A stretch of DNA of 16,787 nt from Elusimicrobiota bacterium (GCA_043819795.1 JBDREN010000072.1:1-16787), one strand, 5' to 3'; positions 3,199-16,787 are shown, counted from the first letter of the stretch. Translations and numbers: made by a program. The notes: generated by a model from the letters alone, not told the origin.

Positions 3199-6100
3199 AT
3201 GGTCAAGAAGCTCATAGCCTGCCTGCTCTCGGTGTGCCTCGTGGCGGCGTGTCCGGGCCTGCCGTTTTTGGGCTCGACGCTGGCGCGCGTGCACGCGCAG
3301 GAGCCCGCGAAGGCGGGCGCGCAGGTCGCCGCGGCGGTGGACCCGAAGGCGGCCATGGACCTCTTCGACGGGCACGGAGTGTTCACCGGCCCGGACGACC
3401 CGATGCGCAGCTACGTCTTCGACGGCGAGTCGGGCCGCCTGTCGGTGATCGGGGAGATCCTCTACAAGTACTACAAGGCCGACCCGGACCGGGCCCAGGA
3501 TTTCAAGCAGAACTTCCGGCAGCTGCGCGAGGCCGGGCCCATGACCTACAAGCAGAAAGAGGCCGCGGTGGGCGCCATGATGGCCGTGGACGCGGAGTTC
3601 AACGACCTCTTCAAGCTCTACGACAGGAAGGTCAAGGGCGAGCAGAACGCGTTTCAGATGGGGGCGATGCTGAGCGCGGCCTTCGACGGCGCCGCTCGCG
3701 CCGCGCAGCCCTTGGCCGACCTCAAGCAGGTGGACACCCAGGACGGCTTCGTGTTCGTGGACGGCGACGGCGAGGTCGCGATCCGCATGACCAAGAACAT
3801 GGCCTGCCGCCACATCGACTGGGCCGAGAGCGCCGAGCCGGTCGAGATGTCCTTCGAGGAGTTCCGGGATTTCGAAGCCAAGCGCAAGTCCGCCGGAGAT
3901 TCGAAGAGCTGGACCTGCGGCGAGGTCGGCGGGGTGACGGTCTTCAACCGCGAGCTCCAGAACAACCAAAAGAAGATGAACCGGGCCCCGGGCCTGCCCG
4001 CCTGCGCGCCCAGCATCCCGGAGAACGGCCGCTACAACTACGAGATGCTCGCCTACACCTACTGCCTGGTGGAGACCGACGTCAGGCGCGCGGAGCAGGC
4101 CTACCGGATCGACCTCATGGTCCGCCTCTCGCAGCTCCTCGGGCAGTTCTACCAGGACGACCAGTACCTCAAGGACGACGAGAACGGCAACCCCGTGCTC
4201 AAGAAGCTCCTGAAGCTGGCCGCGGAGAAGAAGCTCGACAAGTACGACAGCGTGTGCGACAAGACGGTCGAGACCGTCCTCGAGCTGGCCGAATGCAAGC
4301 TGGCCAAGCGCAAGGAATACATCGACAAGGCGGCGGAGCTGCTCAAGGGCTTTCAGCGGCGGGTCGAGGGCTACAAGGACCGGCAGGTCATCACCGAGGG
4401 TGATGTCGGCGAGCTTCAGGGAGACGAGCAGCACATCAAGAAGTACCTGATGCTGGGCTACCTGCAGACCCAGATCAACCAGACCATGGGCAGCCTCGAG
4501 GGGATCAGCTTCGAGGTCATCGAGCGCCACGGGGACCTGGTCGTCCGGGCCGTGGAGGACTCGCCCGACTCCGAAAGGCTGCGCAAGGCCATCGAGGAGG
4601 GCGCCTACAGCGAGCACGTCAAGAAAGACTACATGAGGCGCGCCGGGATGCTCGCCGAGCGCCTGCGCCGGCTGCTCCTGGTCTACCGGCGGCTCGAGGA
4701 CAACCTGCTCGCCGCGGACCACACCTCGCCTCTCGGACGGCTCCAGGCGGCCCTCTTCTCCACCCAGAAGGACCTCGGCGAGGTCGGCCTCGACGTGCGC
4801 ATCTTCTCCACCATCCCGCCCGTCGTCAACCTCGGCAGCAAGGAGCACGAGGGCAAGGTGCGCGGCGGGTATCGCAACATCGCCTGGTTCTTCAACAAGG
4901 TGAGCGGCGGCAGTTGGGCGTCCGGCTACCTGGAGAACCGCGACGTGCTCGAGCGCAGCCTGCCGGTGCTCAAGGGAGCGGCGGCCAGCATCGCGGACGG
5001 GGACTTCGACGCCGCGCGGGAGCAGATACTCACGCTCGCCCCGGACGCGCTGAGGACCCATTGGCAGATCGGTTCGGGGGCGGGCCCGGGCGACGATCCC
5101 AACCGCATGCAGAAGGTCGACGTCGTGCTCCGCCAGACCAACGCGGCCATGGGCCAGCTCATGAAGGCCCATTTGGTCGCCGACATCGCCAAGGACCTGG
5201 CGATCTCGTTCGTCGTCGGGGCGGTCGCGGCTCCCTTCATAGGCGCGGCGGCGCACGGCATCGCGACGGCCTGCTTCAAGTTCGCGACGGCCGCCGCCAA
5301 GCTCGGCAGGGCCGGGAGGGCTATGGCGACCATGGCGCGCGTGGTCGGCGGCATCTTCGAGCATACGGCTCACCGCATGCATACCCTCGGCCCGGCGGCG
5401 GACAAGGTCCGCGGACAGACCTGGCTGCAGCAGCAGGCCTTCAAGGCCCTGGTACGCGGGGTTAACACCGGAGCCCGCGTCGGGTCCTTCTCGCTCGGCC
5501 TCTCCGGCGGGCTCTCGGGCACGCTGAGCGGGCTCTCGGTCGTGAAGGCCAAGATCACCGGCGACAAGACCGTCCCCCACGCCAGCGTCGCCGCCGCTGT
5601 CAAGCAGGGCTACCTCCAGGGCGCGAGCTGGGGGGCCAAGCACGGGTGGATCCTTTTCGTGGGCAACGCCGCGAGCGCTTACGAAGGGACCGTCGTCTAT
5701 CCCGCCGCCCAGTCTTTGGCCAACCGGGGAGTCATCGGCAACGCCGTGGGCATGGGGCAGTGGGCGCTGGGCAAGGTGGGCATCAAGACCGGGGCGAACC
5801 TCATGGACCGCGGTCTGCAGTGGGTGACCACCCGCGGCGGGCTCGTGGGCGGGGTCGGGACGGCCGCGGCCATGGCCGACCACATAATGAAGTACATGGC
5901 GGTGGGCCACGGCGCGGGCTGGGTGGCCCAGAACCTCAGCTTCCGCTTCAACACCCTCGACCGGGACAACCTCGAGCGCAAGTACAAGCGGGCCGAGTCC
6001 GAGAAGCGCGAGAACATGGAGCGCAAGTGGTGGCTGCTCATGCCGCAGTTCTCGGCGAAGTCCCAGGGCCAGGTGGAGGCCATGCAGCGCGCCCGCGAGG

Positions 6101-9100
6101 GCTTGAAGCAGTACGAGAAGTCCGGCGAGCTTCACCGCATCGCCAACGGCGCGGCCGACATCACCGAGCTCCCGCTCAAGGCTCCGGTCAAGAAGCCCTT
6201 CATGCAGAAGTTCTTCGACCTGGGCTGGCTGCGCGAGTCGGGCGAGCACGGGACCTTCAAGTTCGGCAAGGAGATGAAGTACGAGGCCATCCGCAAGGAG
6301 CTCGCGCGCACCGCCGACGCCGAGCGCGCCTCGATGATGAGGCACCTGGGGCGGGGCCGCGGGCCCGGTCCGGCGGCCAAGGGGGCGGCGCCTCCTTCCC
6401 GGTTCAGCCTGAGCAACCTGTTCAAGTTCAGGACGTTCCGCAATCCGAAGGTGGCCGGCGGGAAGCAGGCGCCCGCGCGGGCGGGAGAGGCGGGCAAGGC
6501 GAACCAGGTATACGAGGGGAACGCCTTCAAGGCGAAGCGGTACTTCGAGGTCAGCCGCAAGCAGAAGGGCATGTCCGGGCGCCTGCACATGTCCGACGAG
6601 GTCCGGGACCAGGCCCAAGGGCTCTTCGAGTCTACGGTCCTCAAGAGCGGCAAGCTGGCCCAGCGCATCCTGGGCGCCAAGCCGGGCACGACCGTCAAGG
6701 GCTTCGGGCGCGTGAGCATCGGGTCCCAGGAGGAGGTGGCCCGCATCCTCATCAAGGCCCACGCCAGCGGAACGCGCGTCTCGAGCGCCCGCCTGGCCGC
6801 GAGCCAGAAGATCCTCAAGCCGTACATCGAGTCCGAGAAGATCGTGGCCGACAGCGCCAAGGACCTCCTCAAGTCCTTGAAGGCGAACAAGACCCCGTCG
6901 AAGGTGTTCCAGGAGACCGTCGACGGCTTCCTGAAGAAGACCACGACGTGGAAGAACGACCCCGGCGTCCAGAAGCAGAAGACCTACAAGAACCTCGTCC
7001 AGGAGTTCCGCAAGGACGCGGCCGGGCAGAAGGGCATGAGCGCCCAGGAGAACGCCGTCCTGACCAGCATGCTGGACTACCTGGAGGCGATCGACAAGCG
7101 CTTCAACTACTTCAACCGCGCGGGCACGGCCTCCTCGAGGGCGGACCGGGCCTTGAGCGCGATCCGGGCCGAGTACCGCGGCGGCGGCGCGCCGAACAAG
7201 ACCGTCATCCAGATGCTCGACAAGATGATGAAGCAGGTCCACAATTGGCGGGCGGCCCAGAGCAGCCTCGATGCCCCGGTCGGGAAGTCCTACCGCGACA
7301 TGGTCGGCACGCTCAGAAAGCAGGTGGAGGGCCACGAGGCGAGCCTGACGAGCTCCGATTTCGAGGTCCTGCAGACGGCCGTCAAGGAGCTCGAGGCCGC
7401 GCCGTGGCTGCTGCGCGACTCGAAGGGAACGAACCTGCCCGGCTGGCGGCCCGCGCAGTTCGAGGGCCTCATGCACTTCCTGCGCTCGATCTCGGCCGAC
7501 GGGGCCGAGGCCTCGGACGTCATCCGCACCTTCCTGCTCATGAAGACCGGGACCGGCAAGACCCTGCTTTCCTACGAGGGGCTGCTGCCGATCGCCCAGG
7601 CGGACTCGAAGGCGCGCAAGCTCAAGACCATATTCCTCACCGTGCAGTCGAACCTCGAGTCCCAGGCGCGCATCGAGTTCCGGGCGATGAAGAAGCTCAC
7701 CGACCTCAAGATCGACACCTGGGAGGGCTTCAAGTCCAAGATCGCGCAGAGCAAGCTGGAGTGGAAGGGAGGCGCGGAGGATTACTGGATATTGGGAGAC
7801 GAGATGGACGGCGCGGCCCTGCAGCCCGCGCTCACCATCGGCGAGCAGACGGCCTCTATCTCCAAGGATAACGCGGGCTACCGGCTGCTCAAGCGCATCG
7901 GCAACCGCATGAATGAGATCCTCAACCGCGGGCCCGCCGAGGTGGGCAAGCGCCTCGACGTCCAGATCCGCCGCCAGCAGGCGGCTCTGGACTCGCTGGA
8001 TAGCCGGGGCGCCCACGTGAGCAAGCTCCGGGAGAGCCCCCAGGGCCTCATCAAGCTCTCGAAGAACCTCACCCAGCTCAAGCAGCGCTCCTTCAAGCCC
8101 TCGAGCGGGAAGATGGACGCTTTGCGCCGCGCCGAGGGCATGATCCGGAACCTTTCCACGGGCAAGGCCGCCCCCAGCAACGCCGCGACCGTCAAGAAGC
8201 TCAAGAGCCTGGTCGGCGAGCTCAAGAAGGCCGACGGGGCCGGGGCCCAGCAGGCCGTGAGCCGCGTGGACGCCCAGCTGCGCGAGGCTTGGACGCGCGG
8301 CCACGCCCAGTCCATCAAGCGCGTGACCGGCCGCATCCGCACTATCGTGGACGCGCAGATGAAGACGCTCGACGCCAGCGGCTCCCTGTTCAGCAAGGCC
8401 GACAAGGCCGTGCTCAAGCAGTTCCGGGAGGCGGGCGGCAAGATCAAGCAGACGGCCAGGCAGCACAATGCCGTGGGCAAAGGGGACCTGGACCTGAGCG
8501 TGCAGCAGATCCGCGACATGATGCGCGAGCAGAGCTCGATCTTGAACCAGACGGCTCCGGCCAATCGCGGCGCCGCGCGCAGCCTCAAGCGCATGGCGCG
8601 CACGGCCCGCCGGTCCGGGAACGTGATCGAGGCCAAGAAGCTGGAGGCCCAGGCCCGCCAGGTCCTGAGCGGGAGCAAGCAGGCCCGCGCCGGCCTCGAC
8701 GCCAACTCCCGGGACATCCTCAAGACCCTCAAGGAGGGCAAGCCGGGCTGGCAGGGCAGGGTCCGCGAGCTCGCGCAACAGCGCGAGGGTCTCGTCGAGC
8801 GGGCCGTGGTCAAGAAGAACCCGATCTACGAGATCTTCCGCAACATGCGCCAGGACATGTATTCGCTGGTCCGTTCGCAGACGCGCGTCACCGACACCCG
8901 CGAGGTGCTCGACGCCGCGCCGGCCAAGGCCGGGGAGACGCTCAAGCAGGCGGGCCGGGGGCTCACCAAGGACCTCGTGTCCCTCGTCCGGCGCTATCGC
9001 GAGATCGTGAAGTCCGGCAAGGGCGGGCCCCAGGCGCGCAAGATGCTCCAGCGCGCCGAGAGCCTCCTGAAGGAGGGCCGGACCCAGCGCAAGGCCTGGC

Positions 9101-11064
9101 ACTCGAAGTCCCAGGACTTGAGCCGCCTTCTCGACAAGCCGAGGACCGCCAAACAACAGGCGCTCTACGACGCTCGGGATAGGGCGACCATGGACCTGGC
9201 CAAGGCCGAGAGCGACCTGAGCGCGGTCCGCGCCGATCTCAAGAAGGCGGACGCGGCCTCCCGCCAGGCGGTCCAGCAGCGCCTGCGCCAGGCCGAGCAG
9301 ACCGTGCAGCAGAGCTCGACGAAGCTCAAGGACGTGCACCGGAGCCTGCGCGAGTTCGAGAAGCCGCAGGCCCAGCTCATACAGAGCGCGCTGCGGGACA
9401 TGCAGGCCGACGCCGGAAGGCTTTCGAAGTCCTGGAAGCAGAAGCTGGCCGGTTTCGATGGCCCCGAGGCCGACGTTCTTCGCTCGCGGATGGGCTCGCT
9501 AGAGCGCTCCTGGCAGAGCCAGACCCAGAGGCTCGACTGGACCCCTGAGCGGGCGGTGGAGGTCCTGCACCGGCGCATCAGCGGCGTCGGCACGGCGGAG
9601 CTCGCCACCCGCTACGCCCTGAAGTACACCGGCGCGCGGGCGCTCTTGTCCAAGGTGCCCGGCCTCAAGGGGAGCAGATGGGCCAAGCCCCTCACGCCCC
9701 ACGACGTGGGCCTCACGCGCACCTACGCCAGGCAGCTGCTCAAGAACTTCATGAACGATCCCTTCATCCCGCCGGAGGTGCGCTGGAAGATGCTCTGGAG
9801 CATCGGGCCCTCGGCCCTCTGGCCGCGCGGCGTCACGGGCAAGGGCTCGAGCTGGGTGATGACCGAGCTCTTCAACCTGGCCCGGGGCTACACGGACAAC
9901 CCGGCGAACATACGGATCGACAACATCACCGGCAGGATCAACGTCATCCACAACGGCCAGTGGTTCGAGTCCATGGACACGCCCACGCGCCGCTACTGGG
10001 AGCTCGAATACAACAGCGACCTGACGCTGCCCTACGAGCACAAGACGATCGTCACGATGAACGATTTCGTCAAGGACAACTTGAACGTGCGCATCGTGGG
10101 ATTCTCGGGGACGTCCGGCCCGGAGCACACCTCCTACATAAAGAGGGGCGGGTTCCGGGTCGCGGGCGTGGGCTCGCTCAGCGCCAAAGACGTCCCGATC
10201 GAGATCCACCAGAGCGCGACGGGCAAGTTCAAGTCCATCAGCAACGCCCTGCGCGACGCGCGCGTGCACGACGCGGCGCGGGTCAAGGCGGGCAAGCAGG
10301 CCGACTCCCTCGTCGTCCTGAGCCTGCCGGACACGCAGATGGTCAAGGCGGTGCGGCGGTACCTGATCAAGACCGGGATGATCAAGCCCGGCGAGATCGC
10401 CTCGGTGTTCTCGGACGCCGAGCTCCTGCGCCTGAACCGCCCGCAGGCCCAGGTGGGCAAGCAGATGAACCTGGGCGCGCTCACGCAGGGCAAGATCAAG
10501 CTGCTGATCCTGGACACGCGGGTGGGCGGGCGCGGCCTCGACCTCAACTTCAAGGGCCCCCGCAACGCCGGCCCCGAGGCCTTCCAGGGCTACAACGAAT
10601 TCATGATGCTGCTCGTGGACCCGCAGCAGGCCTCGGGGGCCCACTTCATCCAGGCGCAGGGCCGCATCGACACCGGGCGTATCCCTAAGGGAGCGGTGCG
10701 CCGCTTCAAGATGGTCATGGACCTCCAGGGAGCGGCCAAAGACCCGGTCTTCCGCCGAATGCTGAGCGAGGAGCCCTTGTTCCATCAGCTGCGCCAGCAC
10801 CCGGACGTGGTCCGGGTCGCCATGAAGAACGGCCGCTTCACGGCGAACTGGAGCGACATCCACTCCACGGTCATGGATTTCAAGGGCAAGGGCAAGCAGG
10901 GCCACATCACGGATCGCTACCAGAAGGTCGTCGAGAAGTATCTCGTCGAGAAGCAGCTGACCGTGGAGAAGGACCAACTGCGCTCCGCCAGCGTCCTCCA
11001 GGACGCCGCCACCTTCGATCCCGCCATGCGGGGCCTCAACCCGGTCAGCGTCCCCGGACGATAG
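3199..11064 (+). CDS. Giant 2621-aa signal-peptide/membrane protein with a C-terminal divergent SecA-like (SF2 DEAD motor) ATPase
   Basis: SecA-type motifs in order: MKTGTGKT (7540-7563; SecA MxTGEGKT), IFLTVQSNL (SecA VVTVNDYL), ILGDEMD...PALTIG (DEMD 7798-7809; SecA IVDEVD...PLIISG), IDNITGR...W...WELE (SecA VDEFTGR...W...IEAKE), VGFSGT (SGT 10105-10113; SecA AGMTGT), TRVGGRGLDL (GRGLD 10528-10542; SecA TNMAGRGTDI), QAQGRIDTGR (10651-10680; SecA QLRGRSGR). It also has an N-terminal signal sequence and a hydrophobic Gly/Ala segment at ~5197-5940. It is not the housekeeping secA, so no symbol is given. Confidence 0.85.
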   Translation: MVKKLIACLLSVCLVAACPGLPFLGSTLARVHAQEPAKAGAQVAAAVDPKAAMDLFDGHGVFTGPDDPMRSYVFDGESGRLSVIGEILYKYYKADPDRAQDFKQNFRQLREAGPMTYKQKEAAVGAMMAVDAEFNDLFKLYDRKVKGEQNAFQMGAMLSAAFDGAARAAQPLADLKQVDTQDGFVFVDGDGEVAIRMTKNMACRHIDWAESAEPVEMSFEEFRDFEAKRKSAGDSKSWTCGEVGGVTVFNRELQNNQKKMNRAPGLPACAPSIPENGRYNYEMLAYTYCLVETDVRRAEQAYRIDLMVRLSQLLGQFYQDDQYLKDDENGNPVLKKLLKLAAEKKLDKYDSVCDKTVETVLELAECKLAKRKEYIDKAAELLKGFQRRVEGYKDRQVITEGDVGELQGDEQHIKKYLMLGYLQTQINQTMGSLEGISFEVIERHGDLVVRAVEDSPDSERLRKAIEEGAYSEHVKKDYMRRAGMLAERLRRLLLVYRRLEDNLLAADHTSPLGRLQAALFSTQKDLGEVGLDVRIFSTIPPVVNLGSKEHEGKVRGGYRNIAWFFNKVSGGSWASGYLENRDVLERSLPVLKGAAASIADGDFDAAREQILTLAPDALRTHWQIGSGAGPGDDPNRMQKVDVVLRQTNAAMGQLMKAHLVADIAKDLAISFVVGAVAAPFIGAAAHGIATACFKFATAAAKLGRAGRAMATMARVVGGIFEHTAHRMHTLGPAADKVRGQTWLQQQAFKALVRGVNTGARVGSFSLGLSGGLSGTLSGLSVVKAKITGDKTVPHASVAAAVKQGYLQGASWGAKHGWILFVGNAASAYEGTVVYPAAQSLANRGVIGNAVGMGQWALGKVGIKTGANLMDRGLQWVTTRGGLVGGVGTAAAMADHIMKYMAVGHGAGWVAQNLSFRFNTLDRDNLERKYKRAESEKRENMERKWWLLMPQFSAKSQGQVEAMQRAREGLKQYEKSGELHRIANGAADITELPLKAPVKKPFMQKFFDLGWLRESGEHGTFKFGKEMKYEAIRKELARTADAERASMMRHLGRGRGPGPAAKGAAPPSRFSLSNLFKFRTFRNPKVAGGKQAPARAGEAGKANQVYEGNAFKAKRYFEVSRKQKGMSGRLHMSDEVRDQAQGLFESTVLKSGKLAQRILGAKPGTTVKGFGRVSIGSQEEVARILIKAHASGTRVSSARLAASQKILKPYIESEKIVADSAKDLLKSLKANKTPSKVFQETVDGFLKKTTTWKNDPGVQKQKTYKNLVQEFRKDAAGQKGMSAQENAVLTSMLDYLEAIDKRFNYFNRAGTASSRADRALSAIRAEYRGGGAPNKTVIQMLDKMMKQVHNWRAAQSSLDAPVGKSYRDMVGTLRKQVEGHEASLTSSDFEVLQTAVKELEAAPWLLRDSKGTNLPGWRPAQFEGLMHFLRSISADGAEASDVIRTFLLMKTGTGKTLLSYEGLLPIAQADSKARKLKTIFLTVQSNLESQARIEFRAMKKLTDLKIDTWEGFKSKIAQSKLEWKGGAEDYWILGDEMDGAALQPALTIGEQTASISKDNAGYRLLKRIGNRMNEILNRGPAEVGKRLDVQIRRQQAALDSLDSRGAHVSKLRESPQGLIKLSKNLTQLKQRSFKPSSGKMDALRRAEGMIRNLSTGKAAPSNAATVKKLKSLVGELKKADGAGAQQAVSRVDAQLREAWTRGHAQSIKRVTGRIRTIVDAQMKTLDASGSLFSKADKAVLKQFREAGGKIKQTARQHNAVGKGDLDLSVQQIRDMMREQSSILNQTAPANRGAARSLKRMARTARRSGNVIEAKKLEAQARQVLSGSKQARAGLDANSRDILKTLKEGKPGWQGRVRELAQQREGLVERAVVKKNPIYEIFRNMRQDMYSLVRSQTRVTDTREVLDAAPAKAGETLKQAGRGLTKDLVSLVRRYREIVKSGKGGPQARKMLQRAESLLKEGRTQRKAWHSKSQDLSRLLDKPRTAKQQALYDARDRATMDLAKAESDLSAVRADLKKADAASRQAVQQRLRQAEQTVQQSSTKLKDVHRSLREFEKPQAQLIQSALRDMQADAGRLSKSWKQKLAGFDGPEADVLRSRMGSLERSWQSQTQRLDWTPERAVEVLHRRISGVGTAELATRYALKYTGARALLSKVPGLKGSRWAKPLTPHDVGLTRTYARQLLKNFMNDPFIPPEVRWKMLWSIGPSALWPRGVTGKGSSWVMTELFNLARGYTDNPANIRIDNITGRINVIHNGQWFESMDTPTRRYWELEYNSDLTLPYEHKTIVTMNDFVKDNLNVRIVGFSGTSGPEHTSYIKRGGFRVAGVGSLSAKDVPIEIHQSATGKFKSISNALRDARVHDAARVKAGKQADSLVVLSLPDTQMVKAVRRYLIKTGMIKPGEIASVFSDAELLRLNRPQAQVGKQMNLGALTQGKIKLLILDTRVGGRGLDLNFKGPRNAGPEAFQGYNEFMMLLVDPQQASGAHFIQAQGRIDTGRIPKGAVRRFKMVMDLQGAAKDPVFRRMLSEEPLFHQLRQHPDVVRVAMKNGRFTANWSDIHSTVMDFKGKGKQGHITDRYQKVVEKYLVEKQLTVEKDQLRSASVLQDAATFDPAMRGLNPVSVPGR

Positions 11065-11303: not shown

Positions 11304-12569
11304 GTGCCACGCCACGAGTGGGCGAAACGCCATGCGGCCGCGACGCTTTGCGCGGCCTTGACCCTGAGCGCTCCCGGTCCGTGCGTCTACGAGGCCTGCG
11401 CCGCGCAGATCGCGGGCGCGCTCAACGCGGGCGCTGGGCAGGCGGGGTTCGCGTCCGGCGCGGCCGCCGGAGCCGGCGCACTCGTCCCGGGCTCGATCAG
11501 CGCTCCCCTTGGCGACGTCTATTCCGCGCCAAAGGCCCTGCGCAGCGGCCTGCCGGCCGCCTCCGCTGTCGACGTCACGATTTCTCCCGTCGGAGCCCCG
11601 GCAAAAGCCGCGCGCCCCGCGGCACCGGCCGCCAACGCCGCTCCGAAGGGCGTCCGGCACGGCGCCCCCGCCGGGGTCGACGCCGGCAGGATCGGGAAGC
11701 CGCTGCTTGAACGGCGCGCGGGCGCCGAGCAGGCTCCCGGAGAATTCCTCCGCGTCCTGCGCCGCCGGATGCGCGCCGGACCGGCTTCCAGTGCGGCGCC
11801 GGCCTCCAATAGTCCCGGCGGCCGTTCCGCGGAGACGCCCGAGAGATGGCTCACTCCCTCGGCCGAGACCCTCGGCTCCGCCTCCGCCTCCAAGGAGTGG
11901 GGCCGGCGCAGCTTCGCGGCGCTGAGGGGGGAGAATACCGGCGCGAGCCGGGGACCGGCGGCGACTGTTGACGCGCGTTCGGTTCGAGCTTCCGCGAGCG
12001 TCCGGAGATTCTCGTCGCTGAGACCCGCGCCGGCCGCCAAGGCCGCTCCCGTCGAGGACGCGCCCACGGTGCGGGTCGACGATGCTCCGGTGCGGACCGC
12101 GTCCGCGGCGAAGAAGCTCCCGTCCCTCATGAGCAAGGAGAGCCTGATCCCCGCCGCCGCGTCGATCGGCGTCTTCCTGCTTTTGAAGCTCGGGGTGGGC
12201 GCGGGCATGCTCGCCCCCGTCGCCACGACGTGGCCGGTCCTGCTTTCGGTCAACCTCGTCGTCGGGATCGGGGTGCGCATCGGACTGAAGCTGTGGAAGA
12301 AGCGGCAGGCCGGGAATGAGGAGAAGGGCGACGACGCGCCCGCCGATCTTTCTCCAGTGACCCTGGAGCCGGCGGCGGCGGCCGAGCGGCTCGCCGCGCT
12401 CCCGAAAGGCAAGAAGCCGGCCGAGGTCTCGGTATTCGATTTCGGGTACGCCGGGTTCAGGAGCTTGCCGGTCACCGACGAGCTCATCGAGCAGGTACGC
12501 GCCGGGCTCTACAGCGTCACGACCGACGATACCGGCGTCTTCTACCTCGTCCCCGCGACGGCTTCCTAG
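11304..12569 (+). CDS. 421-aa hypothetical membrane protein; N-terminal ~210 aa paralogous to gene 5
   Basis: Signal-like N-terminus (LCAALTLSAPGPCVYEACAAQ), Ala/Pro-rich linker, hydrophobic hairpin at 12144-12296 followed by WKKR, and a small C-terminal domain. The start and frame are supported by homology to the 13882 ORF. Confidence 0.8.
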   Translation: MPRHEWAKRHAAATLCAALTLSAPGPCVYEACAAQIAGALNAGAGQAGFASGAAAGAGALVPGSISAPLGDVYSAPKALRSGLPAASAVDVTISPVGAPAKAARPAAPAANAAPKGVRHGAPAGVDAGRIGKPLLERRAGAEQAPGEFLRVLRRRMRAGPASSAAPASNSPGGRSAETPERWLTPSAETLGSASASKEWGRRSFAALRGENTGASRGPAATVDARSVRASASVRRFSSLRPAPAAKAAPVEDAPTVRVDDAPVRTASAAKKLPSLMSKESLIPAAASIGVFLLLKLGVGAGMLAPVATTWPVLLSVNLVVGIGVRIGLKLWKKRQAGNEEKGDDAPADLSPVTLEPAAAAERLAALPKGKKPAEVSVFDFGYAGFRSLPVTDELIEQVRAGLYSVTTDDTGVFYLVPATAS

Positions 12570-12717: not shown

Positions 12718-13635
12718 ATGGGTCGTCCGCACCGCATCCAGTTCCCGGGAGCCTGCTACCACGTCGTGCTCCGGGGCAACAACCACCGGGACATATTCCT
12801 CACGAACCAGGACAGGCGCTGCTTTCTCTCGCTTTTGCGCGGGTACAAGGACCGCTACCGGATCAAGGTCTACGCCTACTGTCTGATGCGGGGCCACGCG
12901 CAGCTGCTCCTGGAGACGGCCGAGTCGAACCTCTCGAAGGTCATGCAGGGCTTCAACACGGCGTACACGAAGTACTTCAATCAGCAGCACAACACCGCGG
13001 GCCACGTGTTTTCGGGCCGTTACAAGGCCTTGCTCGTCGACAAGGCCAACCACCTGCTCCAGCTGACGCGCCATATCCACCTCGCTCCAGTGCGCGACGG
13101 CCTTCGGGATAAGCCCTGGCGCTACCAGTGGTCCTCGTGCCCGGCTTATGTCGAGGCGGAGAGCCGCGAGCCTTTCGTGGACTCTGAGGCGGTCCTGCGC
13201 GCCTTCGCGCGCAACCGCTTGAAGCAGTCGGTCCGGTACCTGCAGTACGTCAAGCGGCGTCCGAAACGGACCGAGGCCGAGCTCCCGCTGGTGAGCGGCC
13301 TTTTCGTGGGGAGCCGGGAGTTCGCCGAGTCCGTCCGGAAGCGCTCCGGGTCCTCCGGCGGCGCGGCCGGCGCCGGGACGGACAGCTCGCGGTCCGCCGC
13401 GGACGCGAAGGCGATCCTGGCCGAGGTCTCGAAAAAGCACGGGATAGACCAGGAAAAGCTCTTCGGCCGCGGCCAGTGGCGGGAGGTCTCAGCGGTCCGC
13501 AAGGAAGCCATCTACCGCATGTGGAAGGAGGCCGGGATGGGGGTCACGGAGATCGGGCGCATCTTCAAGCGCACCCCCTCGGCCGTGAGCCAGCTCATCC
13601 GGTCCATGGAAGTCTCCCGCGTCTCCCGGAACTGA
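12718..13635 (+). CDS. REP-associated tyrosine transposase (RAYT, Y1_Tnp/IS200-like HUH fold) homolog with C-terminal DnaA-domain-IV/TrpR-like HTH; predicted catalytically inactive
   Basis: Family-typical segments MGRPHRIQFPGACYHVVLRGNN..DIF, AYCLM, YFNQQHNTAGHVFSGRYKALLVD, Y.WSS. HUH site reads GHAQLL (normally NHxHLL). Catalytic helix reads RHIHLAPVRDG (normally RYIHxNPVRAG). The C-terminal ILAEVSKKHGI...RKEAIY...MGVTEIGRIFKRTPSAVS (from ~13405) matches the DnaA C-terminal HTH pattern. Good SD. Confidence 0.9.
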   Translation: MGRPHRIQFPGACYHVVLRGNNHRDIFLTNQDRRCFLSLLRGYKDRYRIKVYAYCLMRGHAQLLLETAESNLSKVMQGFNTAYTKYFNQQHNTAGHVFSGRYKALLVDKANHLLQLTRHIHLAPVRDGLRDKPWRYQWSSCPAYVEAESREPFVDSEAVLRAFARNRLKQSVRYLQYVKRRPKRTEAELPLVSGLFVGSREFAESVRKRSGSSGGAAGAGTDSSRSAADAKAILAEVSKKHGIDQEKLFGRGQWREVSAVRKEAIYRMWKEAGMGVTEIGRIFKRTPSAVSQLIRSMEVSRVSRN

Positions 13636-13786: not shown

Positions 13787-13881
13787 GGGCCCTTGGTCCC
13801 ATATCAATATGGGCCCATTTTTCAACAAAAAATGACCTTATGGCTCATCCCCTCCGACGGGGTTGGTGGTATTCTATTGAC
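13787..13881 (+). promoter_or_regulatory. Promoter region of gene 5: GGGCCC (13787), ATGGGCCCAT (13809-13818), and -10 TATTCT (13870-13875) 6 nt before the GTG
   Basis: Colinear with 11216-11303. No Shine-Dalgarno. Confidence 0.55.
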
Positions 13882-16787
13882 GTGATACAGAACGCGCGCG
13901 TAAAAAAGGCCGTCGCCACCGCGATCTGCGCCGCTCTGTTCTTTACAGCTCCCGGCCTTCCCGTCTACCAGGTCCTCGCCGCCCAGGTCACCGCGGTCAA
14001 TGTCGCCGCGCCGCAGGGCAGCTCGATCCCCGGCGCGGTCTCCGGCGCCCACATCCAGTCGATCGGCTCCATCAGCGCCCCCATCGGCGGCCGCGTCTCG
14101 GCGCCCGGCGCGCTGCGCAGCAGCCTCCCGGACGCGGCCTCCATCGGCGTCGCGATCTCCCCCGCGCAGGCCGCGCCCGCTTCGCTGCAGGCGGCGTTGG
14201 AGCCGGCGCTCCTGAGCGGGCGGGTCGGCAAGGCCATCCTGGAGCGGGCCGCGAAGGCCGAGGATGCGCCCCAGGGCCTGTTCCAGATCCTGCTCCACCG
14301 GGTGCGCGGCAGCCAGGCCGGACAAGCCGCGGCCACGCCCGCGGAGCACGCCGCCATCGGGGCCGCCGAAAAGTGGCTCGCGCCTTCGGCCAAGACTCTC
14401 GGCTCCGCCTCCTCCTCCAAGGCTTGGGGACTGAGGAGCTTCTCGGAGCTGCGCGGGGAGAGCGTGCACGCGGCCGCTTCCCGCGGCGCGCTCCCCGTAT
14501 TCGCGGGCTCGGCGCGGCAGGCCGGAGCCCTGAAGCCCGCACCGGACGCCGGCGGGATGCGGAAGGCCGGCGACCACGTGGCCCGCGGCTACGCCAAGTT
14601 CCCGGTCCGGGCCCGCAATATGACGCCCGAGAGCATGCTCGCGGGCAAGGCCAAGGCCCGGAAGCATGCCCGCAAGATCGCTCGTGACGCGCGCCTGGTG
14701 CGGGTCTCCATCAACCTCGACAGCTCCAAGGCCCGCTGGGTCTACCTCTTCCACTCCCGCGAGAAGGGCAAGGTCATCACGGTCTACTCCAACGGCGAGA
14801 CCAAGGTCCGCGGCGACCGCAGGAGCCAGAAGGGCGCGGCCGGCTCCAAGAACCTGACCCCGCTGCGCACCTCCCAGACCCTCTGGAACGCGCGGCTGGC
14901 CAAGCTCGGCGGGCTGCAGGAAGCCTACAACCAGCTCAAGGCCGAGACGCATTGGTTCCGGCCCGTGCGCGTCTCGATCGTCTCCAAGTGGCACAGCGAC
15001 CCGGTGTTCGCCTTCATCGACGCCGGCGGACGCGTGCGCGAGATCGCGGCCGTGAAGCCCCGGTCGCCCGCGGCCGCGGCTCCCGCGAAGGGCGCGGCGG
15101 ACGCGAAGGCGCCCGGCGAGGTCGCGCCTCCGGCCGAGCGGCCGGCGCCTCCGGAGGCCCGGGCGCCTCCGGGGGGTGAGGGCCGGCAGGCCTCCAAACC
15201 CGCCAAGAGCCGTCCTCACCTGGTTGAGGACTTTTTCGGTTTTAGGAGGGTCCGCGGCTACAAGCACGACTCCTCGCTCAAGCGCCTTCCCCACGACGCG
15301 GACACCGCGCGGATCATCGACCAGATCGCCAGGCAGTTCAACATCGACCGCGCCCGCGTCCTCGATCTCGGCGAGCGCTACGCCCTGAGCGCCGCCTCCG
15401 ACCGGAAGTCCTGGCTCGCGGTCTACGAGCGCCTGCAGCGCGAGAACCGGGCTGAGCGCGACCACCTGGACCAGAAGAAGTACCAGGGCAGCCTCCTTGG
15501 CGAGGCCCTCAGCCGCCTGTTCGTCCGGCTGGGCTGGAGGAAGAAGGTCTCGGAGGCCGGCTTCCGCAAGCTGGAGAACCGGCGGTATCCCGAGGGCATG
15601 AAGGGCCTGCTGATCCGGGCGCTCGAGGTGCACAAGCACGCCTTCGGGATGTTCCGGTTCGTCTACCACGTCTTCGACGCATTCTTCTTCGGCTACTTCC
15701 GCCGCTCATCCTCCTTCGAGCTGCTCCACAGCACCGAGGACTACCTGACGCTGCGCGCCGACCTGGTCCGGGACAAGGCCCTCGCCGATGGGCGCATGAG
15801 CTCGCTGTTGGAGGAGGAGCTTCCCACGGCCGAGAAGTCGCTGGAGGCGGCGCTGAGCGTCCAGTTCCATCGCGGGCTGAGCTTCTCGGACCGGGTGAAC
15901 GCCTCCGCGATCGGCCGCTGGACCCGCTACCCGGTGCGGCTCGTGCTCGCCCCCCTGACCCAGTTCGTGTGGCGCCGCGCCACCCTGGCGCTTTTCAGCG
16001 CCGTGGCCATGGGCCTGGTGGCGGGCCTGGTCCCTCTGCCGTTCTTGTCGATCCACCTGACGGCGCTGCCGGTGCTCGGCCCCGCGCTCGAGGGCCTGGC
16101 CCACGGCGCCCCGATGCTCGCCTCCCAGGTCCCCTTCATCGGCGGGTCCTTGGCCAACATCACGGGCAGCGCCCTCAACGCCCTGGTGGAGGGGCTCTCG
16201 GTCGGGTCGCTCGTCCAGACCTTCACGCTCTCCTCCATGCTGACCTTCCCGGCCGCCGTCAAGCAGCGGCTCATGGAGCGGCGCGGCTTCAACCTGCGCA
16301 CGCCGCATGCGCTGAGCCGGGCGTTCTTCACCGGCGTGCTCGGGACCGCGGTGAGCTGGACCTTCTGGGCGCAGAACCTGAAGTCCTTCTTCGGCCTGAT
16401 CGTCATCGGCGCCGAGATCGAGGGCGTCATGACCTACGCGGCCGAGACCGACGCCTTTATCAGCCCGGCCTACCAGGCCCTGACGGGGCACCAGTTCAAG
16501 CTCTTCGAGAGCATCGGCGCGGCCATCGAGCGCCCGCAGGGCCGGAGCCCCATCCCCTTCGGCGGCGCGATCACGTGGGGCAACGCCCTCATCTACAAGC
16601 TTCAGAACCTGATCGGCTTCAACCTGACCGACGAGGTCTACCGGATCGTCCACGGCGCGGCCTACGGCTCCTATGACGGCGCGGTCTCGGAGGCGATGGT
16701 CCAGGCGCGCCACGCGGCGCCGGGCGCGTCCCGCGCGAACGCGGGCGCGTCGGTGGTGGCCGGCGTCGTGGGCGCGGCCGGCCACAC
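13882..16787 (+). CDS. Large (>968 aa, 3'-truncated by the window) signal-peptide, multi-pass membrane hypothetical protein; absent from the supplied ORF track
   Basis: Hand-translated from GTG 13882 (MIQNARVKKAVATAICAALFFTAPGLPVYQVLAAQV...) with no stop to the window end and strong GC3 bias. The N-terminus is paralogous to gene 3. Two PepSY-like units at ~14620-15055 and several hydrophobic segments at ~15940-16420. Confidence 0.9.
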   Translation, partial: MIQNARVKKAVATAICAALFFTAPGLPVYQVLAAQVTAVNVAAPQGSSIPGAVSGAHIQSIGSISAPIGGRVSAPGALRSSLPDAASIGVAISPAQAAPASLQAALEPALLSGRVGKAILERAAKAEDAPQGLFQILLHRVRGSQAGQAAATPAEHAAIGAAEKWLAPSAKTLGSASSSKAWGLRSFSELRGESVHAAASRGALPVFAGSARQAGALKPAPDAGGMRKAGDHVARGYAKFPVRARNMTPESMLAGKAKARKHARKIARDARLVRVSINLDSSKARWVYLFHSREKGKVITVYSNGETKVRGDRRSQKGAAGSKNLTPLRTSQTLWNARLAKLGGLQEAYNQLKAETHWFRPVRVSIVSKWHSDPVFAFIDAGGRVREIAAVKPRSPAAAAPAKGAADAKAPGEVAPPAERPAPPEARAPPGGEGRQASKPAKSRPHLVEDFFGFRRVRGYKHDSSLKRLPHDADTARIIDQIARQFNIDRARVLDLGERYALSAASDRKSWLAVYERLQRENRAERDHLDQKKYQGSLLGEALSRLFVRLGWRKKVSEAGFRKLENRRYPEGMKGLLIRALEVHKHAFGMFRFVYHVFDAFFFGYFRRSSSFELLHSTEDYLTLRADLVRDKALADGRMSSLLEEELPTAEKSLEAALSVQFHRGLSFSDRVNASAIGRWTRYPVRLVLAPLTQFVWRRATLALFSAVAMGLVAGLVPLPFLSIHLTALPVLGPALEGLAHGAPMLASQVPFIGGSLANITGSALNALVEGLSVGSLVQTFTLSSMLTFPAAVKQRLMERRGFNLRTPHALSRAFFTGVLGTAVSWTFWAQNLKSFFGLIVIGAEIEGVMTYAAETDAFISPAYQALTGHQFKLFESIGAAIERPQGRSPIPFGGAITWGNALIYKLQNLIGFNLTDEVYRIVHGAAYGSYDGAVSEAMVQARHAAPGASRANAGASVVAGVVGAAGH

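Follow-up and report, generated by a model that had tools for sequence, protein, structure and literature searches.

A signal-peptide-bearing protein with a SecA-like motor in Elusimicrobia, possibly delivered to other cells

The DNA analysed here (16,787 nucleotides, Elusimicrobiota bacterium, GCA_043819795.1 JBDREN010000072.1:1-16787; hereafter the window) is the entire contig C72 of its source genome, G000. It carries an open reading frame (ORF) of 2621 amino acids (aa) without internal stops, present in one copy in G000, whose product joins a signal-peptide-shaped N-terminus to a SecA-like motor. The reading favoured here, at a probability of roughly 0.4, is that this protein is a SecA-derived motor without the SecY-docking scaffold that leaves its producer and reaches another cell, inserting there into the membrane to pull in tagged cargo. 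One part of this reading is firmer, as descent of the motor from SecA is likely. If the whole is true, a translocase would run in the import direction inside a foreign cell, constituting an undescribed delivery pathway in Elusimicrobia. The gene and the parts of its product are as follows.

3199-11064, plus strand: signal-peptide protein with a SecA-like motor, 2621 aa (ORF translation; 81 further homologues, all named ones Elusimicrobia).
3199-3297, plus strand: predicted signal peptide, aa 1-33, of a shared 'KKxLAxxxxxxLxxxxPG...AxA' leader type (iterated leader profile).
3298-5103, plus strand: N-terminal, mainly helical domain, aa 34-635, isoelectric point (pI) about 5.5 (AlphaFold2 model with a predicted local distance difference test score, pLDDT, of 87; no known fold matched).
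5104-5949, plus strand: Gly/Ala-rich long helices, aa 636-917, a candidate membrane-inserting region whose best hydrophobic stretch is aa 667-685.
7390-7866, plus strand: first part of nucleotide-binding domain 1 (NBD1), with Q, motif I (Walker A, K1454), motif Ia, motif II (DEMD, 1534) and the strand leading into the insert (alignment).
7867-9690, plus strand: basic, poorly conserved insertion of about 600 aa after motif II, at the site where SecA inserts its preprotein-binding domain; far shorter in some homologues.
9691-10068, plus strand: conserved segment preceding motif III that resembles the preprotein cross-linking domain (PPXD) of SecA (alignment, structure match of a homologue, profile-profile match).
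10069-11061, plus strand: motif III, NBD2 (motifs IV, V GRGLD and VI QAQGR) and a short helical tail, without wing domain, two-helix finger or zinc finger.

A preliminary description of this DNA had proposed an ORF of this length that starts with a signal peptide and carries an ordered set of superfamily 2 (SF2) motifs, and both features hold. KTGTGKT lies at aa 1449, DEMD at 1534, SGT at 2303, GRGLD at 2444 and QAQGR at 2485, in agreement with the positions named earlier. An alignment of 40 family members shows its highest conservation at these motifs, which are therefore not chance occurrences; Q, GKT, DExD, the S of motif III, RG of motif V, QxxGR and one further R are invariant. Their order is that of the genome's own SecA, including a strand after motif II and a segment before motif III, which in SecA frame the preprotein-binding domain. 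The N-terminus combines KK, a hydrophobic stretch at aa 5-23 with a Kyte-Doolittle (KD) value of 2.27 and V-H-A before Q34, and signal-peptide-like N-termini are found across the family, unlike in soluble cytoplasmic SecA.

No SecA match was obtained for the protein or its pieces in Pfam, NCBIfam or PDB sequence searches. Because sequence alone does not indicate SecA, structure prediction was applied to the motor of P0034, a natural compact homologue without the 600-aa insertion that shares 43% identity with the window motor. In the resulting AlphaFold model (pLDDT 85, predicted template modelling score 0.83), the motifs assemble into two RecA-like domains, as had been anticipated. Every listed row of a Foldseek search down to rank 26 is SecA or SecA2 (best 5eul, E 6e-12), with the first non-SecA row at E 3.5e-7. 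VIA-align gives a Z of 18.3 to Bacillus subtilis SecA, and a search independent of Foldseek also places SecA first (Z 16.8 vs 15.7 for FANCM). SecY-bound SecA aligns over 486-491 residues (491 for the substrate-engaged 6itc, root-mean-square deviation 5.1) vs at most 341 for the listed non-SecA rows. Thus, a nucleic-acid helicase is not the best structural match, SecA being first in three structure searches. The extra aligned residues and a weak profile match around the PPXD end suggest that the NBD1 of P0034 carries such a domain, placed between motif II and motif III.

The SecA alignments of the P0034 model end near B. subtilis SecA residue 598, where the scaffold begins, and only 136 aa separate motif VI from the C-terminus of the window protein. 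The helical scaffold, the wing and the two-helix finger, which is the SecA element that pushes chains into SecY, are absent from the motor, supporting a loss that had been suspected from the length of the tail. Because these parts are missing the protein is not a member of SecA, and its motor would at best work like that of SecA.

The motor half is also almost devoid of cysteine. After C692 the window protein runs for 1,929 residues without one, and aa 34-635 holds six of the seven cysteines of the mature part. Across the family, motor halves contain 0.01% cysteine in 78,827 residues from 62 proteins, compared with about 1% for two sets of G000 proteins from crude gene calls, 278 cytoplasmic-like and 66 with a P-loop.

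This property is shared with proteins that carry a similar leader. An iterated leader profile finds 24 proteins in G000, including the motor protein and both of its downstream neighbours; the motor protein, which joined the seed set during iteration, matches at E 5.9e-8, and the best reversed-sequence control reaches E 0.68. The other 23 contain three cysteines in 19,844 residues. Their first 50 residues are almost uncharged and are followed by a spacer rich in Ala, Gly, Pro, Ser and Arg, and their domains include MscS, ABC exporter, MFS, PQ-loop, M48, M50, Rce1, S8, ABC1-kinase, ATP-grasp, amylase and HEAT. Among 56 hand-picked genomes, leader proteins occur in all 24 that have the motor (2-24 matches each) and in two of the 32 that lack it. 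The informative cases are G018, G036, G038 and G048, four genomes of the same order (90-97% complete) in which motor and leader are both absent and the TadG-like gene is kept. The motor's candidate clients are likely the genome-wide class of leader-tagged proteins. The preliminary description had pointed to the neighbouring large proteins, which was correct insofar as both downstream neighbours are leader-tagged, but too narrow.

Toxin tails give the best hint that the C-terminal end of the family reaches another cell, since a tRNase needs cytoplasm. The family members in G044 (genus g23) and G409 end in CdiA_C (E 3e-21 and 5e-20, respectively). The G044 tail matches PDB 4G6V (E 3e-23), described in the available text as a tRNA-Ala nuclease with catalytic residues E187, D214, D223 and K242 (PMC9086364), and all four are identical in the tail when aligned by eye. 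A 138-aa gene lies 5 nucleotides downstream of the G044 tail and is also found after the G409 tail. The two motors are 35% identical, their last 100 aa 78% and the downstream genes 71%. In G377, whose motor is 85% identical to that of G044, a different tail has colicin-D-like features (Atlas 0.93, a lead only), and P0085 (motor 72% identical) has no tail. Judged by analogy, this pattern is how polymorphic toxin cassettes get exchanged. A metagenome scan for further tails returned three loci, two of them near-copies of G044, and 123 of 138 proteins, a set that includes redundant entries, have a tail shorter than 25 aa. About eight members (L062, L099, L093; P0110, P0118, P0132, P0136, P0141) end in a hydrophobic hairpin and a Pro-rich tail, located at the position where other members carry toxins.

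The half preceding the motor is predicted to be mostly helical (aa 34-1233, pLDDT 87). Searched as a single 1,200-residue model, it has no match in the PDB at E <= 0.001, pore-forming toxins included; its best VIA match, to helical bundles, has a Z of 9.7, and the ESM Atlas holds no usable match for the N-terminal domain. This part is acidic (pI 5.5) and the C-terminal part basic (pI 10.3). KD windows above 1.3 occur only at aa 5-23 and aa 667-685. The latter segment (KD 2.13) is a fair transmembrane candidate in the window protein, and only 30% of 80 family members have a segment with KD of at least 1.6 after the signal peptide. On a crude insertion score that combines scale values from Hessa 2005 with a window weighting devised for this analysis, the window protein reaches 1.93 in its best segment and the family median is 3.05 (n=80); for comparison, eight membrane proteins of the same gene cluster score -1.8 to +0.9 and a ninth 2.1. 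Because the family score is weak beside these membrane proteins, a firm Sec anchor appears not to be conserved in the family, though the window member may have one. The membrane segment announced in the preliminary description thus stands as a candidate in the window protein and is marginal across the family.

The motor family is small and limited to its lineage. With the C-terminal 452 aa as query, 82 proteins were found, the window protein among them; the named ones are all from Elusimicrobia, as are nearly all titled records in a further homologue search. This C-terminal part was matched in 52 of 61 related genomes. Across the phylum a motor-family profile matched 67 of 401 genomes: 10/11 in family f1, 48/51 in f2 and 1/3 in f3 (the three families of this order), 3/4 in f8, 1/1 in f11 and three borderline cases, with none among 123 f4 and 55 f5 genomes. 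Apart from G000, 59 of 65 sampled genomes of the order have the motor, usually in a single copy. Across the whole library, a profile search matched 155 representatives at E <= 0.001, of which 96 had E <= 1e-30. Most members are 2,000-3,400 aa long, with the motor as the sole recognisable enzyme, and natural compact versions of about 2,000 aa have a motor of about 720 aa. In f8, 1,100-3,000 aa of further domains follow the motor.

Several variants of this arrangement were observed. The f8 members (L088-L092, L103) are giants of 4,000-6,000 aa with a ClpB-like AAA+, pyruvate phosphate dikinase (PPDK)/PEP-utiliser, M50, M14 or GH15 domain behind the motor. Other Elusimicrobiota families (L236-L246) encode giant ORFs of 3,000-11,000 aa, whose SecA-like domains vary from nearly canonical to hardly detectable. 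One subclade (L046, L048-L050, L054; P0053-type) has an insertion of about 110 aa before motif I and an altered Walker A loop in which GKT is retained. The motor gene of G055 (L056), a genome that includes a 3.1-Mb contig, is broken between motif I and motif II into two overlapping frames.

Canonical secA is present in 121 of 121 genomes of the phylum. G000 itself has two canonical loci, the only PF07517 matches in this genome, in line with the expectation of a separate housekeeping secA. These copies (L001, L002) lie on contigs C122 and C180; on C122, not far from the contig end, the SecA frame is lost at about residue 580, through assembly error, paralogy or contamination.

The window contains four further genes around that of the motor, for which 41 loci were compared, several of them stopping at contig ends.

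1-2958, plus strand: upstream partner, a signal-peptide-like protein without Pfam match, conserved on the same strand in 37/41 loci.
11304-12569, plus strand: 421-aa protein with the shared leader and a cysteine-free mature part (leader profile).
12718-13635, plus strand: Y1_Tnp (RAYT-like) gene with a helix-turn-helix (HTH), downstream of the motor gene in 19/41 loci.
13840-16787, plus strand: 5' part of a gene for a large leader-bearing, cysteine-free protein, interrupted by the contig end; homologues follow in 15/41 loci.

An N-anchored protein of about 850 aa precedes the partner in 23 of the 41 loci. Farther upstream, TadG-like and TadE-like genes, which Pfam matches weakly (E 0.046 and 0.007), are joined by a gene for an FtsH-like AAA+/M41 protein and by genes for three to six Gly-rich membrane proteins, each about 500 aa long. 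The G000 copies are located on contigs C60 and C93, and a Tad locus (ATPase, secretin, RcpC) on C216. The motor gene closes this conserved cluster with its Tad-like pseudopilin genes. The cluster also occurs without the motor in two f4 genomes and in G048, where it reaches the partner gene and the motor is missing after it. Specificity of the entire Tad-like cluster for the motor was considered and rejected, as the TadG-like gene is more widespread (21 of 31 genomes) and is found in ten tested genomes without the motor.

The Gly-rich membrane proteins are paralogous, share a basic 'KKEKERKKGG'-like N-terminal motif and have no Pfam matches (L068-L071, L073, L074; G000 C93). TadG-like paralogues are found beside or near leader-bearing genes (G000 C90:22788-24149, C226:35981-37012). 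The HTH of the Y1_Tnp gene is of DnaA type, and the stable synteny of this gene with that of the motor points to a regulator that has been domesticated, not to a mobile element. The protein that starts at 13840 reaches about 5,000-5,800 aa in relatives by open-frame length (G044, G003, G377, G042, G050), and the scanned parts of these relatives have no Pfam matches.

Delivery of the motor to another cell, the reading favoured here, would proceed in four steps. The SF2 motifs, intact in the family, and a predicted SecA-type fold with a preprotein-binding insert would supply the motor. The predicted signal peptide would export the protein via Sec, and the Tad-like cluster may bring it to a target cell. 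There, the Gly/Ala-rich helices of aa 636-917 might insert into the target inner membrane, leaving the basic, cysteine-free motor half in the target cytoplasm, where ATP is available. Finally, the motor could ratchet in the cysteine-free proteins that carry the leader, namely transporters, intramembrane proteases and ATP-using enzymes; in one genus it could also bring in the toxin fused to its own C-terminus. A fuller version, in which an attacker installs the motor in the target membrane and the motor then imports dozens of cysteine-free proteins with the leader (transporters, membrane proteases, enzymes) at the expense of target ATP, is doubtful. The preliminary description had left the choice between an exported effector and a membrane-tethered export motor; the former is strengthened by the toxin tails, by the leader shared with other proteins, by the lack of cysteine in the motor half and by the weak hydrophobicity of the family.

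Several observations weigh against delivery. The motor model was made for P0034 and not for the window protein, and the Z margin of SecA over non-SecA SF2 proteins is only about 1. Family profiles searched against the PDB rank DEAD-box helicases (best E 3.6e-5) over SecA (E 2.5), and Pfam assigns the motor to ResIII rather than to SecA. The segment at aa 667-685, with its KD of 2.13 and score of 1.93, may be nothing more than an ordinary anchor. A normal cysteine content of 1.08% is found in signal-peptide proteins of the ordinary kind in G000 (crude gene calls), so cysteine loss marks a class and does not name a compartment. Leaders without the motor occur in G005 and G020 (85% and 88% complete), and the genomes used for co-occurrence are kin as well as hand-picked, and hence not independent. 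The leader profile is biased to G000, the source of 17 of its 20 rows. It matches 31 of 113 full-length family members at E < 0.01, and the window protein lacks the long Ala/Pro spacer of the cargo proteins. Toxin tails are found in three of 138 proteins that reach the profile end, all from one genus, and not in the window protein; the 138-aa downstream gene matched nothing in the PDB or Pfam, and no such gene was seen in G377.

Alternatively, the motor could sit in the inner membrane of the producer, with the N-terminal domain in the periplasm and the motor in the cytoplasm, and act in a SecA2-like manner in the export or insertion of leader-tagged proteins. This arrangement, the tethered option of the preliminary description, is unlikely. 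The stretch at aa 667-685 is hydrophobic enough for it in the window protein, and the hairpin at the end of about eight members could be a second anchor, but the anchor is weak in most of the 80 homologues. A motor so placed would have ATP at hand, the leader co-occurrence fits it equally well, and the division into an acidic part with cysteines and a basic part also suits it. However, the loss of cysteine from a cytoplasmic ATPase would go unexplained, as would the tRNase and partner gene at the motor C-terminus in two divergent carriers, and the model lacks the two-helix finger.

It is less probable still that the motor is an SF2 nucleic-acid translocase or helicase, exported as an effector that acts on target DNA or RNA. 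The only Pfam and NCBIfam matches are ResIII (E 2.5e-6, above the Pfam cut-off) and DEAD (E 0.004), at about aa 1413-1511, and SecA_DEAD is not among them. Profiles A1, A2 and A6 gave only weak helicase matches in the PDB (DEAD-box, Dicer, Ski2 and HsdR among the profile matches), and the motor half is very basic. A family profile compared with one SecA of the same genome gave E 1e-4 and 0.11. A compact profile did not separate SecA from other SF2 proteins among the ORFs of G000, and against 11 SecA_DEAD-positive giant ORFs of the phylum it reached a best E of 0.03, providing no sequence bridge to SecA. Identity to SecA is 9-13%, too low for a usable tree. Set against these matches are the three structure searches topped by SecA, even though non-SecA SF2 folds come within about 1 Z, as well as the insert between motifs II and III and some 150 extra residues that align with SecA only. 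The best profile-profile match to 24 SecA sequences, although weak (E 2e-4), covers the end of the PPXD and motif III. Furthermore, several of the remote matches among 1.84 billion representatives lie as domains in other giant proteins, and the SecA profile matches one of these as well. The proposal of a SecA-like motor is therefore supported by structure prediction on a homologue, where SecA ranks first, and not by sequence profiles, where DEAD-box proteins do.

Two further alternatives have a poor chance. The whole protein may work in the producer's periplasm on ATP exported by the cell, for example pushing cargo across the outer membrane. The periplasm is the default destination of a protein with a signal peptide and no strong anchor, and there are two weak TLC-family matches, but these are partial (E 1e-7 and 6e-4), and a tRNase tail or ABC exporter and MFS cargo would have no use there. 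Equally improbable is a protein that is delivered to the target but moves only itself as a self-translocating toxin carrier, with the leader link reflecting shared lifestyle ancestry, which would suit the toxin tails of one genus, the f8 motors followed by 1,100-3,000 aa (ClpB-like AAA+, PPDK, M50) and the kinship of the genomes, yet leaves 123 of 138 members that keep catalytic motifs and cluster position without any C-terminal cargo.

SecA-like domains in giant proteins of uncultured bacteria have been reported and raise the question of which side of which membrane they act on. The present family is the smallest and most regular example found, with one conserved gene, compact versions and defined candidate clients, and its natural toxin fusions report where the motor C-terminus ends up. 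Together, the compact motor, the candidate clients and the toxin fusions make the question of membrane side testable. If delivery is true, it would represent a new bacterial route for placing proteins in other cells and point to a predatory or parasitic lifestyle of free-living Elusimicrobia. No account of the motor family, its cluster or the leader link was found in a literature search that covered bioRxiv preprints without their supplements, which may hold Elusimicrobia sequences. The main text of an Elusimicrobia genomics preprint has no occurrence of the terms SecA, Tad, signal peptide or secretion (10.1101/765248). In Omnitrophota, Tad systems and giant ORFs have been linked to predation, with SecA unmentioned in the available text (PMC10066038).

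SecA-like modules with SecA_DEAD and preprotein-binding domains and no scaffold or wing are described in giant proteins of Omnitrophota and Actinobacteriota (10.1101/2023.11.21.568195; see also 10.64898/2026.06.07.730766), so a remark to this effect in the preliminary description was right. West-Roberts et al. read the Omnitrophota giants as motors anchored in their own membrane, and the available text mentions Elusimicrobiota only for gene-size counts and methods (10.1101/2023.11.21.568195). As described there, these giants likewise combine a SecA motor lacking scaffold and wing with a large membrane-associated protein, a normal secA elsewhere and pilus or secretion genes nearby. They are multi-enzyme proteins of more than 10,000-30,000 aa with many transmembrane helices and are detected by SecA_DEAD, whereas the window protein has 2,621 aa, one marginal hydrophobic segment and is invisible to SecA_DEAD. 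Its family is usually single-copy, syntenic and weakly hydrophobic.

In common with SecA and SecA2 (PDB 5eul, 6itc, 3jv2, 6t4h, 4uaq), the motor has two RecA folds, an insert between motifs II and III, the same motif order and several motif residues. In contrast to them, the protein has a signal peptide, an N-terminal part of 1,400 aa and an insert about 600 aa larger, shows 9-13% identity, and lacks the wing, the two-helix finger and the zinc finger. A further parallel is offered by the secondary SecA_DEAD proteins found beside type-I-secretion-like genes (Kamneva et al., PMC4452313), which, in the text available, are also extra SecA-type ATPases in a conserved non-Sec module of Gram-negative bacteria. 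Those proteins are recognised by SecA_DEAD and accompany genes of the type I secretion kind, while the motor family is accompanied by TadE/G-like pseudopilins, an FtsH-like protein and Gly-rich membrane proteins.

Polymorphic toxins provide the last comparison. SecA-like domains are described in Amoebophilus effectors (PMC3482391), and a SecA-like ATPase occurs with MFS domains in giant actinobacterial toxins (PMC8195603). Unlike these variable toxin loci, the motor gene is a conserved member of a cluster, and most of its products have no toxin. What the family shares with them, as far as those texts describe it, is a SecA-like ATPase within proteins aimed at other cells and, in three members of one genus, a toxin-like C-terminal tail that may be exchangeable, with a candidate partner gene downstream in two of them.

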